Source: Candidatus Thorarchaeota archaeon
GTDB lineage: Archaea; Asgardarchaeota; Heimdallarchaeia; Hodarchaeales; Hodarchaeaceae
Length of the DNA: 32,000 nt
Reading direction: 5' to 3'
Assembly: GCA_048882505.1 (NCBI GenBank)
Contig: JBHLRO010000001.1
Coordinates: forward strand, 420,001-452,000
Both the position numbers and the translations under genes were made by a program. Below the pieces are notes generated by a model, which was given only the letters and a program-made list of their open reading frames with translations, did not search any database and was not told where the DNA came from. Of this stretch, positions 9,796 to 18,124 are shown piece by piece. Every line of letters begins with the position of its first letter. Within the stretch, counting starts at the first letter, position 1.

Positions 9796-10698
9796 TCAAT
9801 CAAGTTTTTTCTCTAAACGATAACTTTGTTCCGTTTGAATGAAGCCCCATTCTTTTCCGGATGGTAAACGCGGAGAGTCAGGAAAGAAGGTCGTTTCAAA
9901 TCTCTTTTTACCTCGTTTAAAGGCTCTGTTCTCAAGCTCCATAAAGAGGAGCCGTTCAATCTCCTGGTGATCGCCGCTAACAGCTACGCCGCCGAAATAA
10001 GCCTTGTCATTATTCTCATCATTAGGCAAAAACATTGCATAAAAACCGACCGCTTTTCCATCTTTTTCAGCAACAACCATTGATTCGGGATCGTAATCAC
10101 TTGAATTCATAAACTGCTCATAATCTGAACCTACAAAAGGTGATTTCATTTTAGGATCATTCCGAGAAACCTCTTCTAGTACAGTAAGATCTTCCTTCCT
10201 TAGCTCTCGAAAAGTGTACCCTTCGGGAATTTCGAATTCATTAAATTCCATATCTTTATGATGAACCAGAAATTCGACCATTGTCTGAAAATCTTTGGAT
10301 TTGAAGTAGTTAAGTTGTTCAGGATATCGTGGAGATCCGAATACTCTAAGAATCGAAGTCCCTTCATCCCGGCATTTGGTCTCCATTGCTTCATAAAGTT
10401 GATCTCGGACACTGGATGGTGTACCCTCTGTTAACCACGGATAACCTACACCTCGTAAATTCAGTTCTTTATCCTTCCCAGATAAACCAGCATATCCTAC
10501 CATGCGATCGCCATCATAAGCGTAAAACATACGACTTTGGTCAAAGGTCTCTCTCTGGAATCTTCTAACGGTATCTTCAACCTTTGCAGGTTCAAATTCG
10601 GGTAATCCTGAAGTTGCATCATTGAATATCTTAGTTTGCCCTTCAGCTAATTCTTCTAATCGATCAGGATCAAATCCTTTAATTTCAATCGGTGACAT
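9796..10698 (-). CDS. Tandem GNAT N-acetyltransferase
   Basis: Two GNAT-like repeats (MFYAYDGDRMVGYAGL; MVVAEKDGKAVGFYAM...GGVAVSGDHQ). The ATG at 10698 has a GAGG SD. Confidence 0.75.
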   Translation of the reverse strand: MSPIEIKGFDPDRLEELAEGQTKIFNDATSGLPEFEPAKVEDTVRRFQRETFDQSRMFYAYDGDRMVGYAGLSGKDKELNLRGVGYPWLTEGTPSSVRDQLYEAMETKCRDEGTSILRVFGSPRYPEQLNYFKSKDFQTMVEFLVHHKDMEFNEFEIPEGYTFRELRKEDLTVLEEVSRNDPKMKSPFVGSDYEQFMNSSDYDPESMVVAEKDGKAVGFYAMFLPNDENNDKAYFGGVAVSGDHQEIERLLFMELENRAFKRGKKRFETTFFPDSPRLPSGKEWGFIQTEQSYRLEKKLD

Positions 10699-10795
10699 CG
10701 ACTTTCCTCTTGTTTTTGAAATCCATCTGTAACTAGGATTAAAACAAAAGCGATCCGATTCTGGCAATCATCGCTATCATTCGTGAACCATTAGA

Positions 10796-12076
10796 TTACT
10801 CGGGCTCTTTTTTCATTTTCACAACCATCTGAAAATTCTGAGCCAAAGAATCGTAGAAATCGATTAAAGTTTCAAGGTCATCAGCCATGAGGGATCCCCC
10901 GCGTCCAATTTCCCCAATTCGACGGAGCATAAGTCGATCGGCTTCACCTAAGCCAATCGCGTACAGAACCGCCTCAGGCAATTGAGTTACGCGATCTCGG
11001 ACAACAGGGATAGGATTCACCCCCAAGCCATTTCCTTTGTTGGGATTCCCATCAGTCAGCACAATTATCATTGTCGGATTCTTCTTATTGATCGCCGGAT
11101 TAATTCCGAATTCTTCGATGCTTTGGTATGCTTGGTCTAAGGCTCCTGATAAAAACGTCAATCCAGTACTTTCCTCAGTTTTTTGAACTACGTGGTTAAT
11201 GATACTCTCTATTCCTGCTTTCTTCGTTTCTCCGACACACGAAATTACGGGAGAGTCTCCCAAAACATATTTTTCAACCTCACCAGAGAAAGTAAGAAGC
11301 TGAACCTGCTCTCCCCAGCCCTTGGCGATTTTTAAAGACATAAACAACATTATTGCCATAGCAGCCGCATCAACACGACTTACATTTTTTCCATCCTCAA
11401 ACTTATTCATAAAGGCAATCAGATCTTTAGATTCCTCCAATCCTTTACGTAGTCCTTCCAACGCGCCACTGATGTTTTTAACCTTCATGTCTTTCTTCTG
11501 CATACTTCCAGACACGTCAAGTACAAGGACTGCGTTAAAACTCATTTCTGTATACGGTTGAATGTTGATTTCAATTTCTCTTCCAGTTGGATCCACAATC
11601 CCAATATCGCCTTCTGCAATTGGGGGAGCGGCGCCCATAAACCTAACAGTTATACTCCCAATAGGACAATCCTCCCAAGCTATTTGCAAACCACCAAAAA
11701 CGGGACGATTACGTAGAATATTGGATAATTGTTCAAATTCAGTAGCGATCCAGAGAAGGACCTCCTCTACCTCTTGGCCAGCCAATGGTTCGATGCCTAG
11801 CTGTATAGATTTGATGCCTGCGGCCATTGGAGCTTTTTCTACTTCAACCGAGTCTCCATCGGAAATGTTCGCTGAGCTTAGGACACTGTCATCAACCGCG
11901 ATGGTACCTAATTCAACCTCATCACTCGAAAGAATCTGTGCAGCACCCCAGTCCTCCCATTCTGATGTAAGTTTCACATAATCAAATTCCTCTATTCCAA
12001 CATTTGAAATGTCTTGGGGATGCATGTATGCTCGGCCCTCAATATTACCCACATTAACTACGTTAAGTTTAACCAT
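10796..12076 (-). CDS. CDC48/p97 N-domain-like (double-psi barrel) + von Willebrand factor A fusion protein
   Basis: The N-terminus GRAYMHPQDISNVGIEEFDYVKL...GTIAVDDSVLSSANISDGDSVEVEK resembles CDC48_N. vWA MIDAS motifs VLVLDVSGSM, TFLSGAL and IIVLTDG. GGTGA SD. Confidence 0.75.
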   Translation of the reverse strand: MVKLNVVNVGNIEGRAYMHPQDISNVGIEEFDYVKLTSEWEDWGAAQILSSDEVELGTIAVDDSVLSSANISDGDSVEVEKAPMAAGIKSIQLGIEPLAGQEVEEVLLWIATEFEQLSNILRNRPVFGGLQIAWEDCPIGSITVRFMGAAPPIAEGDIGIVDPTGREIEINIQPYTEMSFNAVLVLDVSGSMQKKDMKVKNISGALEGLRKGLEESKDLIAFMNKFEDGKNVSRVDAAAMAIMLFMSLKIAKGWGEQVQLLTFSGEVEKYVLGDSPVISCVGETKKAGIESIINHVVQKTEESTGLTFLSGALDQAYQSIEEFGINPAINKKNPTMIIVLTDGNPNKGNGLGVNPIPVVRDRVTQLPEAVLYAIGLGEADRLMLRRIGEIGRGGSLMADDLETLIDFYDSLAQNFQMVVKMKKEPE

Positions 12077-12189
12077 TCAAATCACCGCTTTTCAATAGAA
12101 TACTAATTTTATCGCTTTGGTTTTTCGATTTTTAAGATATTAGTTACATTTCCTTGTTATCAGATTTGAAAAGACTCGACTTTGGATCC

Positions 12190-16574: not shown

Positions 16575-17482
16575 GGAAGAGTATAGAGAGTCTTGAAGAA
16601 TTTTTTTGCTTGTTCAACAAGACTGAGCCAAGGATTTTTCTCTATATCAATCCGAGAAGATAAAATCGATGGTAAAACTGATCTCTCAACAGATAAACGA
16701 CGAATAATGAATGCAAGAATTGGTAGGATATAAATCCCTAACAACGATATCCTATAATAACTTAATTTTCCGTAGGTTTCTTCAATAATATAGGGGCTTA
16801 ATTTATTGAGAGAACCTCCCACAGATTTTCCCTCAAAACGTGCAGCTAGCGCTCTCTTCGAGAATCCAGTCCCCAAACTTAAATAATCCCAAATTAAATC
16901 CTCATAGATTTTGAAAGCGAGGCTCTTTCCACTAAATGTCTTTGGGGTTTCAAAAATCAATTGCCTTGTCCGAATTTTCTGAGGATCCCTTCCAGTTAGC
17001 AGATCTGATAACACTTTATTAAGGATCTTTTCGTTAGATATCATTGTATCGACCAAGAATCGAATAGCCGATTCTTCATTGGTTATATTATCTGGCATTG
17101 ACATCTTTTCTTGAAATCTTCCTCGATCCCATTCGACTTGAAGCGGGTCAGGGGTAACAAAAGAGACTAATATGTACAAAAGTGCTAATTCACCAAGAGG
17201 GCTTATCGTGTGAAATGAAACTTTGGTGGAGCTGATTATCTGCTCTCGTTCTCTTTCTAGAATCTCCACATTAACCATCGAAGTGATATATCCCCTGACT
17301 CTGGCGGTCGTAATCCCCTGTGGGCGGCCTAGAAGCGCTGTATAAATTTCCGTGATCCCCTTAATTGTATTCTGGTCGGCACGCTGACCCAGGTAGATCG
17401 CAAGTAGACATAATGCTCGATCATAATGTTCAATAACCTGGAGAGTACCGAATAATCGCTCAAATGGATCTTCCTCTGACAT
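16571..17482 (-). CDS. Hypothetical protein, probably two winged-helix-like domains
   Basis: Two segments ending in wing-like patterns (FHTISPLGELAL; YYRISLLGIYIL). GGAGGTG SD; ATGA-coupled to the amidohydrolase. Confidence 0.55.
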   Translation of the reverse strand: MSEEDPFERLFGTLQVIEHYDRALCLLAIYLGQRADQNTIKGITEIYTALLGRPQGITTARVRGYITSMVNVEILEREREQIISSTKVSFHTISPLGELALLYILVSFVTPDPLQVEWDRGRFQEKMSMPDNITNEESAIRFLVDTMISNEKILNKVLSDLLTGRDPQKIRTRQLIFETPKTFSGKSLAFKIYEDLIWDYLSLGTGFSKRALAARFEGKSVGGSLNKLSPYIIEETYGKLSYYRISLLGIYILPILAFIIRRLSVERSVLPSILSSRIDIEKNPWLSLVEQAKKFFKTLYTLP

Positions 17483-17503
17483 TTATCTCCACCTCCTCTC
17501 GGA

Positions 17504-18124
17504 TTATCCTTGCCCTTCCCAAACATCGAACGCAGAACTCTCTGCATCAAATTCACAAAGGTTGAGAATTCCCCGCTGGCAATTTTTCCGTTCCTCTTCA
17601 AACTCGGCCTTTTTGACCGCTACTGTTACCAGTATGTCCTTAACAAGTTTCTTTTTCTTGGAAAGAAAATAATCTTGCACCTCGGCCCTATAGTTGTCTG
17701 CATTATCCTGAGCAAGATCATACTTGTTTAGATAGATACTGATCTGCTTTGAGGGAATTTCTATGTCGTCATAAAACCTAATTTGATTCTCTAGTGGTTT
17801 TGATAGATCGAACATACAGACAAAGCGATTAGCATTACGAAGCACATACACTCTGTAATAGTCCGTTATGGGGGTTTTATGGCCTCCTGTTCCGTATAGA
17901 ACGTGTATAAATCCTTTCCATGAAAAACGGATAAAATCCACGGTTTGAGTGGTATACATTTCCGGACCTCCTGGCGCACCTGCCAAGATCCGTTCATCTG
18001 CGGAAGTTAGCTCGTTCATGAAATTTACGAAAACGCTTGTTTTCCCGCAGTTCATGTCACCCAGAATACCTATGTTAACCATAAACCCACCAATTAAGTT
18101 TATACACTTACCGCTGTCAAGCAT
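17504..18124 (-). CDS. Small P-loop GTPase, MglA-like
   Basis: G1 GDMNCGKT, G2 TTQTV, G3 LYGTGGH (no Asp, as in MglA-type GTPGQ), G4 NKYD. The start may be the later ATG (MVNIGILG). Confidence 0.75.
   Translation of the reverse strand: MLDSGKCINLIGGFMVNIGILGDMNCGKTSVFVNFMNELTSADERILAGAPGGPEMYTTQTVDFIRFSWKGFIHVLYGTGGHKTPITDYYRVYVLRNANRFVCMFDLSKPLENQIRFYDDIEIPSKQISIYLNKYDLAQDNADNYRAEVQDYFLSKKKKLVKDILVTVAVKKAEFEEERKNCQRGILNLCEFDAESSAFDVWEGQG

Follow-up and report, generated by a model that had tools for sequence, protein, structure and literature searches.

Two juxtaposed gene modules at an Asgard archaeal locus: a conserved trio of ligase, amidohydrolase-fold enzyme and Cdc48N-like/vWA protein beside a HerA-like ATPase unit

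Six co-oriented genes lie close together on the minus strand of a 32,000-nucleotide stretch of Asgard archaeal DNA (the window), and the first-pass annotation read them as a candidate GTPase-controlled writer/eraser/reader system for protein tagging or amino-acylation. The locus raises the question of whether these genes form one unit and what chemistry they might encode. All six open reading frames were present in the ORF list of the window, and the close packing described for them was confirmed in the sequence, where ATGA overlaps are legible at 16571–16574 (303-aa gene and AMH) and 15126–15129 (AMH and LIG) and a spacer of 21 nt, with a GAGGAGG-like stretch ahead of the 303-aa gene, follows the GTPase gene. 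All six genes are real, and their orthologues in congeners share 46–85% identity with them. The locus is best described as two modules lying side by side, plus a bystander gene. Module 1 (10796–16574) is a core trio on the minus strand, namely an amidohydrolase-fold enzyme (AMH; 15126–16574, 482 aa), a ligase (LIG; 12190–15129, 979 aa) and a vWA protein (10796–12076, 426 aa). Module 2 (16571–21366) contains a HerA/FtsK-like ATPase (18298–21366, plus strand, 1022 aa), an atypical small GTPase (17504–18124, minus strand, 206 aa) and a 303-aa protein (16571–17482, minus strand); it is a separate unit that abuts module 1 by happenstance. The bystander encodes a GNAT acetyltransferase (9796–10767, minus strand, 323 aa). 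We give this reading, taken jointly with the mechanism proposed below for the trio, about even odds (roughly 0.5).

The proposal that LIG, AMH and the Cdc48N-like/vWA protein are functionally linked is supported: throughout the Asgard archaea the three occur in the same genomes, lie near one another and have evolved together. The LIG profile has matches in 251 of 400 Asgard genomes, usually one per genome; these include f1 (17/21 genomes), f4 (12/12), f13 (5/5), f14 (6/6) and f20 (114/135), and f3 (0/31), f5 (0/12) and f12 (0/19) have none. Within the class the AMH profile tracks LIG (15/21 in f1, 12/12 in f4 and 0 elsewhere). One vWA orthologue apiece was present in five f20 genomes, and none in five genomes (92–95% complete) of families lacking LIG and AMH. 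The window's own genome holds exactly one copy of each gene, all in this cluster. Among 46 loci of distant lineages, the stretch (up to 20 kb) around LIG contained AMH at 29 and a vWA orthologue at 20, and the gene orders seen were AMH–LIG–vWA, AMH–vWA facing LIG, and X–LIG–AMH. The vWA gene is away from LIG–AMH in the f20 genomes checked, and at some f31 loci no AMH–vWA pair was found within 20 kb. Trees of the three proteins agree (clades Hod+f4+f13a/f14a, f13b/f14b and f19+Hel, SH-aLRT 97–100), and f13 and f14 genomes each carry two paralogous trios. The trio has been kept across Asgard archaea, inherited vertically and, in an old duplication, duplicated as a whole; we found no description of it in the literature. 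Gaps within the trio are at most 113 nt, no Pup-like gene was found in the window, and no proteasome linkage of the trio was seen. Elsewhere, in f4, the trio is flanked by the housekeeping genes for phosphofructokinase and Met-tRNA ligase. In a single distant lineage two ubiquitin-like genes fall inside the module, and at one locus a HEPN/nucleotidyltransferase pair is inserted within it.

Membership of the trio's unit was not supported for the GTPase, the 303-aa protein or the GNAT gene. Module 2 is anchored by the HerA-like ATPase, encoded divergently from the GTPase gene, which matched DUF87, HerA_C and the PADLOC HerA/mad8 models and ends in a coiled coil and a Cys-rich region. The GTPase label is backed by the G1 (GxxxxGKT) and G4 (NKYD) motifs, but G3 reads YGTGGH without the Asp and Pfam returned sub-threshold matches only. 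The GTPase C-terminal tail (SAFDVW-x-GQ) is conserved, orthologues begin MVNVGILG, and translation probably starts at the ATG at 18082. For the 303-aa protein, annotated earlier as a winged-helix (wHTH) protein, ESM Atlas gave weak leads to PadR/ArsR-type HTH proteins (TM 0.31–0.35), but no match was found in Pfam, NCBIfam, PDB or PADLOC. This protein was seen only in genus g1 (17 of 21 genomes), with no match among the 378 other Asgard genomes; the GTPase family occurs in 17 of 21 congeners, with sporadic distant homologues. The 303-aa gene always follows the GTPase gene, and the HerA-like gene stays beside both in all congeners examined. This includes G001, where the pair lies with the HerA-like gene on a contig other than the trio's. 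In G133, from another Asgard family, a GTPase homologue lies directly upstream of a HerA-like homologue (2e-158) with no trio nearby. The GTPase and the 303-aa protein belong with the HerA-like ATPase and are separable from the trio. Given the ATGA overlap between the 303-aa gene and AMH, the two modules may still be co-transcribed in this window.

The GNAT domain itself was confirmed (Acetyltransf_1, 34.9 against a Pfam cut-off of 20.7), with the true start probably at an ATG 23 codons inside the ORF, but its membership of the system was not upheld. The gene is missing from at least 12 congener loci; 8 of the 21 congeners carry orthologues, located on other contigs and adjoining only in G016, and in the closed congener genome G009 the orthologue is 1.6 Mb from the trio. 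It adjoins the trio only in the window's species and its nearest relative and is a chance neighbour, part of neither module. A SAVED-domain gene lies 1.7 kb past it.

The GCS2-fold label given to LIG held. The N-domain (13735–15129, minus strand, residues 1–465) scored 30.7 bits against a GCS2 cut-off of 21, the Pfam match spanning 45 residues only, and the fold was confirmed by a model (pLDDT 91.8) whose closest PDB structures are YbdK (1tt4 and 1r8g, TM 0.73–0.74). Across 33 sequences the GhExE signature (G14, E16 and E18) and E116, H172, H174, R237, E291, R293 and R340 do not vary. On the modelled fold and these residues, the domain is assigned as a divergent ATP-dependent YbdK/GCS2-fold carboxylate–amine ligase. 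It is followed by a Lys/Pro-rich polybasic linker (13405–13734, minus strand, residues ~466–575), probably disordered, with up to 35% K+R per 60-residue window; the protein past residue 450 has a net charge of +26. All 'type A' ligases (those without the X gene upstream) share the polybasic feature (net +26 to +52), and 'type B' ligases are without the linker. For the β-rich C-terminal region (12190–13404, minus strand, residues ~576–979), the ESM Atlas neighbours by feature and by structure are domains of CARDB/NPCBM_assoc type, and a long GCS2 ligase cluster labelled Thorarchaeota has the same shape (TM 0.63), a lead towards CARDB/Ig-like sandwiches. Only two AFDB fold clusters lie close to LIG. 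Related ligase domains are also embedded in proteins of 2200–3900 aa, and a distant paralogue elsewhere in the window's genome (E 1.6e-6 to the LIG profile and 1.5e-4 to the protein) could be a conventional GCS2 enzyme.

The amidohydrolase label was upheld through relatives and structure: 9 of 11 AMH orthologues matched PF04909, although the window's own protein gave no Pfam match. The model (pLDDT 83.9) shows a TIM barrel (residues ~20–345) followed by a C-terminal α/β domain of ~130 aa, and its best fold matches (Foldseek, VIA) were 4dlf, 3cjp, LigI, LigW, IDCase and ACMSD, with Z up to 22.1. D23, H25, H27, K174, H176, H239 and D292 are invariant across 30 orthologues. The modelled fold identifies AMH as an Amidohydro_2-fold metal enzyme. 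The nearest solved structures are lactonases, decarboxylases and hydratases, not amidases; amidases of the superfamily follow at Z 19.4, so the fold leaves the chemistry undecided.

The vWA protein begins with a Cdc48N-like double-psi barrel region (11552–12076, minus strand, residues 1 to ~175), after which comes a vWA domain (10796–11551, minus strand) whose MIDAS site is complete. The vWA label was confirmed (VWA_2, 37.3 against a cut-off of 27), and the MIDAS residues D187, S189, S191, T307 and D342 do not vary among 19 orthologues. The CDC48N label fared less evenly: CDC48_N scored 31.5 bits, under its 35.1 cut-off, but the orthologue profile matched double-psi barrels from Cdc48/VAT N and p97 N (E 1.6e-4 to 2e-2) as well as vWA chains, and gave no match to the NTD-SABA module of DEPDC5/Iml1. 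Identity inside the genus is 80–85%. Using alignments built in this analysis, a complex of AMH with the vWA N-domain was predicted at 0.66, against 0.00 for the best control; 58 of 80 solved complexes reach that mark, as do 2 of 110 mismatched pairs. Prediction runs had at least 59% of contacts in common, and partner pLDDT was at least 79. The model suggests that the vWA protein docks through its Cdc48N-like domain on the catalytic face of AMH, leaving the MIDAS site free, and points to a bound partner of AMH rather than the free reader first envisaged.

Taken together, these features would fit a scheme in which LIG couples a carboxylate, activated as its acyl-phosphate, to an amine. The non-catalytic arm of LIG (polybasic linker and Ig-like domains) would hold the substrate, which makes a macromolecule or a polyanion-bound target likelier than a free metabolite. 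The AMH–vWA complex might work on the same substrate or product, by bond reversal or an adjacent step, with the MIDAS metal gripping a carboxylate of that substrate. The catalytic residues of LIG and AMH and the MIDAS site are all invariant, and a cycle of amide writing and erasing on a macromolecule is a plausible candidate function. The first-pass interpretation is partly supported overall: a protein target is an unproven candidate reading, ubiquitin-like genes being enclosed in that single lineage, and amide cleavage is likewise an unproven candidate activity of AMH.

A small-molecule pathway is possible but less likely. LIG would then make an amide metabolite, γ-glutamyl-type or otherwise, such as a thiol, a compatible solute or the precursor of a cofactor; AMH would carry out a lactonase-, decarboxylase- or hydratase-type step on it, and the vWA protein would be a metal-loading or regulatory subunit of AMH. 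YbdK and glutamate–cysteine ligases are the nearest structures to LIG, small-molecule lactonases and decarboxylases are nearest to AMH, and a single-copy trio, near-universal in many Asgard families, fits housekeeping metabolism. The N-domain is also predicted on the active-site face of AMH, and the vWA/MIDAS proteins CoxE, NorD and CobT assist metal centres. However, known vWA helpers in metal insertion work with a MoxR or AAA partner, and none is in the module. Such ligases rarely have 500–900 aa of polybasic linker and Ig-like arrays or sit within proteins of 2200–3900 aa, no further pathway enzyme is conserved near the trio, and the distant GCS2 paralogue could be the conventional enzyme.

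The write/erase reading of the trio must also be set against two wider ones. That all six genes form one protein-tagging operon, controlled by the GTPase and with GNAT as co-modifier, is suggested by their shared orientation, by the ATGA overlaps of AMH with both the 303-aa gene and LIG, and by the order HerA, then GTPase–303aa–AMH–LIG–vWA, which recurs in ~10 congeners. Against this, the GTPase and 303-aa genes go with HerA (G001 and G133), the 303-aa family does not extend beyond one genus while the trio is phylum-wide, other genes separate the 303-aa gene from AMH in one congener, and GNAT is non-syntenic. The single-operon model is largely refuted by synteny and very improbable; GTPase control and a place for the supposed wHTH protein in the trio's unit are likewise not supported. 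It is also improbable that the cluster is an anti-virus or conflict system in a defence island, in which the NTPases would act as sensors and the effectors would be the ligase and the hydrolase. The SAVED-domain gene, the PADLOC HerA/mad8 matches, the variable ligase architectures (including giant fusions) and the HEPN/nucleotidyltransferase insertion speak for it. The trio, the GTPase and the 303-aa protein gave no PADLOC match, though, and the trio, present in single copy and vertically inherited, follows family structure where defence genes are patchy; its vWA protein is well conserved (80–85% within the genus) and its neighbours in f4 are housekeeping genes.

Among known systems, LIG is closest to the YbdK/GCS2 ligases (PF04107; 1r8g and 1tt4), sharing the fold, the GhExE metal/ATP signature and the His/Arg/Glu active-site set, and their ATP-dependent acyl-phosphate mechanism would be expected for LIG too. 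It differs in identity (only 15–16%; NCBIfam YbdK score 53.5 against a cut-off of 371), in an inserted sheet/helix region holding an invariant motif (residues 102–122), in its polybasic linker and ~400 aa of Ig-like domains, and in its constant partnership with AMH and a vWA protein. Pupylation in Actinobacteria (PafA, Dop and Pup) likewise pairs a ligase of this superfamily with a hydrolytic enzyme and shares the idea of writing and erasing an amide; PafA and Dop, however, reach TM 0.37–0.48 to the LIG model, under YbdK and GCL (0.56–0.74), and the eraser there is a ligase paralogue, whereas the putative eraser here is a TIM-barrel Amidohydro_2 enzyme. AMH resembles Amidohydro_2 members (PF04909; COG3618 lactonase 4dlf, LigI, LigW, ACMSD and IDCase) in fold (Z 19.6–22.1), in its HxH, His and Asp metal ligands and in a catalytic His, at ACMSD-like positions. 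COG3618 and LigI are lactonases and LigW, ACMSD and IDCase are decarboxylases, none of them cleaving amides. Identity to these relatives is just 11–18%, and AMH has an extra C-terminal domain (~130 aa) and an extra β-hairpin flap (residues 30–44), the predicted docking site of the vWA N-domain. In module 2 the ATPase shares the DUF87/HerA central domain and P-loop of HerA/FtsK-type ATPases but is 1022 aa long with a coiled coil and Cys-rich tail, and its partner is an atypical small GTPase where known HerA partners include NurA and Sir2. The vWA protein recalls Cdc48/VAT N-domain proteins and vWA/MIDAS adaptors such as Rpn10 in having a double-psi barrel-like N region and then a full-MIDAS vWA domain. 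The trio differs from Cdc48/VAT systems in having no AAA ATPase and a CDC48_N match under the Pfam cut-off, and the N-domain of its vWA protein is predicted to bind a hydrolase, not a ubiquitin-fold adaptor.

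An ORF listing of the window returned six consecutive genes on the reverse strand, with the coordinates claimed by the first-pass annotation, which had proposed all six as a single candidate writer/eraser/reader operon. They encode an atypical small GTPase (17504–18124), a 303-amino acid protein labelled as a winged helix (wHTH; 16571–17482), an amidohydrolase-fold protein (AMH; 15126–16574, 482 amino acids), a GCS2-fold ligase (LIG; 12190–15129, 979 amino acids), a vWA protein (10796–12076, 426 amino acids), and a GNAT protein (9796–10767, 323 amino acids). Both ATGA overlaps (16571–16574 and 15126–15129) and the 21-nt spacer, which holds a Shine–Dalgarno-like GAGGAGG, could be read in the sequence. 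The GCS2, vWA, and GNAT labels scored above Pfam/NCBIfam cut-offs, the last with 34.9 bits for PF00583 (gathering score 20.7, residues 220–292), and the CDC48_N and GTPase families scored below them. Searches with the window proteins gave no match in Pfam or NCBIfam for the 303-amino acid protein or for AMH (none in Pfam at E 0.1). The amidohydrolase label was upheld by the orthologues, 9 of 11 of which match PF04909, and by the AMH model (pLDDT 83.9), which fits Amidohydro_2 structures with Z scores up to 22.1. Downstream of the GNAT gene, an 85-amino acid ORF (9183–9440) resembles the remnant or fragment of a longer gene, and the window ORFs include no convincing gene in the rest of 8990–9800. 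A SAVED-domain protein is encoded at 6902–8134 (Pfam 4e-21; PADLOC SAVED-effector models down to E 2.6e-26); no cyclase or cas gene was found among the scanned ORFs of the window.

The linkage of AMH, LIG, and the vWA gene proved to be kept across distant Asgard lineages. A profile search detected LIG in 251 of 400 sampled genomes, mostly as one copy, with entire families having or lacking it, which places the trio among the more widely conserved function-unassigned Asgard gene sets; it spans Hodarchaeales as well as Loki- and Thor-type lineages. The AMH profile, searched within the class, followed the same family pattern, and a vWA orthologue was found once in each of five genomes of one family (f20) and in none of five well-assembled genomes from families lacking LIG and AMH. 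All genomes are MAGs, and absence means not found in the genomes searched. Around LIG in 46 loci of distant lineages (up to 20 kb of fetched DNA, local HMMs), AMH was present in 29 and the vWA gene in 20. In about 10 genomes of the window's genus, the genes run HerA-like ATPase (divergent), GTPase, 303-amino acid gene, AMH, LIG, vWA. In a second Heimdall family (f4), AMH and LIG are adjacent between phosphofructokinase and Met-tRNA ligase genes, with the vWA gene on the opposite strand at a distance of about 6 kb; in f8, f13, and f14 an AMH–vWA pair faces LIG, the latter two families carrying two complete paralogous trios per genome. The trio was also seen in independent metagenomic contexts. 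Among the distant members, L054/L067, L055, L056/L076, and one Logan contig had no detected AMH or vWA neighbor in the stretches shown. When the three proteins were placed in maximum-likelihood trees (by a quick search, with a single long outgroup branch), the same clades came out with SH-aLRT values of 97–100, both paralogous lineages included, which means that the trio duplicated and evolved as a unit.

Two further arrangements were seen at such loci, where gene starts were taken as the first start codon of each ORF. One f20 genome has a HEPN/minimal nucleotidyltransferase pair between the ligase and amidohydrolase genes (L072:10897–11897), a kind of pair typical of toxin–antitoxin modules. 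A congener of the window's genome, G007, holds a second, divergent ligase–amidohydrolase pair on a separate contig (C60:43–3038) besides its syntenic trio; this second ligase is a 491-amino acid open frame 35% identical to the window LIG.

The same comparisons moved the operon boundary. The 303-amino acid family was found in 17 of the 21 genomes of the window's genus and in 0 of 378 elsewhere, and the GTPase family in this genus together with a few distant homologues. In the congener G001, the HerA-like ATPase, GTPase, and 303-amino acid genes share one contig, where an unrelated gene follows them, and AMH–LIG–vWA, preceded by other genes, is found on a second contig. A genome of another family, G133, has a HerA-like homologue (2e-158) immediately downstream of the GTPase homologue and no trio in the vicinity. 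Because the GTPase and HerA-like genes occur together away from the trio in both genomes, the partner of the GTPase is the HerA-like ATPase (18298–21366 in the window, forward strand, 1022 amino acids); the comparisons do not support the proposed GTPase control of the ligase. The GTPase and the 303-amino acid gene are thus assigned to a separate HerA-like ATPase module. Membership of the GNAT gene also fell away: it is at the locus in none of the same-genus genomes with conserved order, its orthologues lie on other contigs, or 1.6 Mb off in a closed genome, and the adjacency is common to the nearest relative only. Additional genes in two congeners, a 370-amino acid gene between the 303-amino acid gene and AMH (L017:13432–14544) and two genes for proteins of about 345 amino acids between HerA and the GTPase (L018:2546–4697), indicate that the six-gene block is not rigid even within the genus.

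The GTPase carries recognizable G1 (GDMNCGKT) and G4 (NKYD) motifs, and its G3 reads YGTGGH, with Gly for the Asp of DxxG; a C-terminal tail, SAFDVW-x-GQ, is conserved. Every Pfam/NCBIfam match fell below its cut-off, and the sole PDB match was a Gα construct at E 0.005. Together with the HerA-like ATPase of more than 1000 amino acids, divergent in this genus and in tandem in a distant Asgard family (L104:343–4221), it seems to make up a separate NTPase pair that has not been described. For the 303-amino acid protein, the ESM Atlas model (pLDDT 0.53) gave PadR/ArsR neighbors at TM 0.31–0.35, weak leads that are the only basis for the wHTH label, and PDB sequence profiles gave no usable match to the family.

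The N-terminal domain of LIG was modeled with a pLDDT of 91.8 and has a GS-type saddle fold. Its closest PDB structures are those of YbdK (1tt4 and 1r8g; TM 0.73–0.74 by target, E 1e-12 to 3e-13), followed by plant and bacterial glutamate–cysteine ligases (GCL; 2gwc, 3ln6, and 2d32), and only two fold clusters lie near it in AlphaFold DB. Glutamine synthetases scored lower than YbdK/GCL, as did PafA (4bjr) and Dop (7oyh and 9cku), whose TM of 0.37–0.48 does not place LIG in the PafA/Dop family. The Pfam GCS2 match (PF04107, 30.7 bits versus a gathering score of 21) aligns residues 163–207 only, and LIG falls short of the curated NCBIfam whole-protein cut-offs for YbdK/GshA (NF010039 and others; best 53.5 bits versus 371, TIGR02050 50.8 versus 176.4). 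On the first core strand, G14-I-E16-I-E18 forms the GhExE metal/ATP-binding signature that defines the carboxylate–amine ligase superfamily (PMC2588565). This signature and a full set of further Glu, His, and Arg residues of the domain are invariant in 33 family members, and as judged from this conservation LIG is very probably active. Beyond the catalytic domain come a Lys/Pro-rich linker and about 400 amino acids grouped by ESM Atlas with CARDB/Ig-like sandwiches. Searching 1.84 billion representative proteins with the ligase-domain profile gave 87 clusters at E <1e-30, in which the domain stands alone (about 500 amino acids), carries C-terminal extensions (900–1400 amino acids), or lies near the C terminus of proteins of 2200–3900 amino acids.

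In AMH, an HxH pair on strand 1, a further His and an Asp as metal ligands, and a catalytic His are all present, with H25, H27, H176, H239, and D292 invariant in 30 sequences. The metal site (H25, H27, H176, and D292) is ACMSD-like, and H239 is the likely catalytic base. The model is a TIM barrel (4dlf, Z 22.1, rmsd 3.0 over 249 residues; 4i6k, Z 21.1) to which a β-hairpin flap and a C-terminal α/β domain are added; the AMH profile (A3) found no match among PDB sequences at E up to 1. Lactonases, decarboxylases, and hydratases are its closest relatives of known structure, and since the amidases of the superfamily are barely more distant, the fold does not fix the chemistry of AMH. The vWA protein exceeds the Pfam thresholds for VWA_2 (37.3 versus 27) and VWA (30.2 versus 23.8), and its MIDAS motif DxSxS...T...D (D187, S189, S191, T307, and D342) is invariant across orthologues. 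Its N-terminal region scored 31.5 bits for CDC48_N (PF02359), under the gathering score of 35.1; among PDB sequences, a profile of 19 orthologues matched double-psi β-barrel (DPBB) designs based on Cdc48/VAT N (E 1.6e-4) as well as p97 N (E about 1e-2), and gave no match to DEPDC5.

Co-folding of AMH with the vWA protein, using alignments built in this analysis, scored 0.66 (runs of 0.66, 0.72, and 0.62), with three controls reaching 0.00 at best; 58 of 80 solved complexes attain that mark, as do 2 of 110 mismatched pairs. At least 59% of contacts agree between runs, with a partner pLDDT of at least 79. The prediction supports binding of the two proteins. To our knowledge no comparable complex has been solved, which makes it unlikely that the score reflects a known structure. 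The predicted interface comprises W40/E41 of the vWA N-domain with residues 67–74, 96–100, and 128–155, and AMH residues 30–58, 116–117, 131–138, and 297–298 (the flap, the next helix, and loops at the C-terminal ends of barrel strands). The AMH side is the catalytic face of the barrel, and the MIDAS lies outside the interface. On this model the vWA protein would serve the hydrolase as a subunit or adaptor and would not be a free reader.

In most other Asgard families a fourth conserved gene, which we call X (220–620 amino acids, without Pfam match), lies directly upstream of LIG (L072:7247–9019, L088:10706–11377, L056:9312–9986, L060:8677–9990, and about 30 further loci). The order is X–LIG–AMH in f19 and f20, and X–LIG with an AMH–vWA pair 4.5–6.5 kb distant in f31. 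X proteins have in common a C-terminal region of about 220 amino acids with a D-x-G-x-F-G-G-G motif. X is missing from the window's genome and wherever the ligase has a polybasic linker: ligases with no X upstream, the window's included, all have an extension that is highly basic (net charge +26 to +52), and those preceded by X do not. Comparison by hhalign did not relate X to the 303-amino acid protein (probability 0.05%). Nor was homology seen between the C-terminal part of the long ligases and either X or the extended N-terminal portion of f20-type X (hhalign 0.2–1.5%, hmmsearch nothing). In an f30 locus (L056:6892–9986, same contig as L076), the X–ligase pair is directly downstream of a gene for an 805-amino acid EAP30 (ESCRT-II) protein, with Arf-like GTPase genes near; no amidohydrolase or vWA gene was detected in that fetched stretch.

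A distant module (L057:1514–2567, also L058) has two paralogous proteins of about 177 amino acids encoded between amidohydrolase and ligase. Each has an N-terminal ubiquitin-like domain (PF00240 at E 1.5e-7 in one, sub-threshold in the other) and a common C-terminal domain, and one terminates in ...KGGVE. Searching all ORFs of the fetched loci with both proteins (jackhmmer) gave no ubiquitin-like genes beyond these two loci. Inside the trio, one overlap and a 113-nt gap leave no room for a Pup-like gene. No tag gene ending in GGQ/GGE was found by LIG, and the small ORFs at 8990–9800 are not tag-like.

AMH, LIG, and the vWA gene are inherited together, and their catalytic and metal sites are intact; the trio pairs an ATP-dependent amide ligase bearing protein-interaction domains with a hydrolase that has an apparent dedicated MIDAS adaptor. 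We give a probability of roughly one-half to the reading that LIG forms an amide on a substrate held by its arm and that AMH–vWA acts on the same molecule. LIG would proceed through an acyl-phosphate intermediate, its basic linker and Ig-like arm holding the substrate, and the MIDAS metal may hold a carboxylate of the molecule on which AMH–vWA acts. A protein target is pointed to by the interaction domains, the giant fusions, and the two ubiquitin-like genes, which are confined to one lineage and do not recur. The stronger proposal within this reading, that the trio is a hitherto unknown Asgard system for reversible amide-bond modification that writes and erases a true mark on a macromolecule, is tentative. 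An equally tentative alternative is a small-molecule pathway, in which case the trio would point to an unknown Asgard metabolite; the nearest folds, YbdK/GCL for LIG and lactonases, decarboxylases, and hydratases for AMH, are in its favor. A role in defense is very unlikely, the trio, the GTPase, and the 303-amino acid protein having no PADLOC match, and the original six-gene model, with the GTPase reassigned and the GNAT gene elsewhere in relatives, is scarcely credible.

No paper describing the module was found in searches combining Hodarchaeales or Asgard with GCS2, glutamate–cysteine ligase, vWA, or amidohydrolase; one study lists Asgard matches to GshA families and no more (PMC7278568). 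The components are defined enough for biochemistry: the catalytic ligase domain spans about 465 amino acids, an interface is predicted for the hydrolase–adaptor pair, and the catalytic residues are clear. Some phylogenies place Hodarchaeales nearest to eukaryotes, and a true write/erase mark would mean that the lineage giving rise to them has a new system for modifying proteins after translation, or for modifying polymers. In such a system, the mark that the ligase places on proteins, or on another polyanion-associated macromolecule, would be glutamyl-type, amino-acyl, or ubiquitin-fold, and the hydrolase–adaptor complex would read the mark through the MIDAS and then erase it. In function, this system would parallel pupylation or tubulin-type amino-acid ligation, with different parts as its components.
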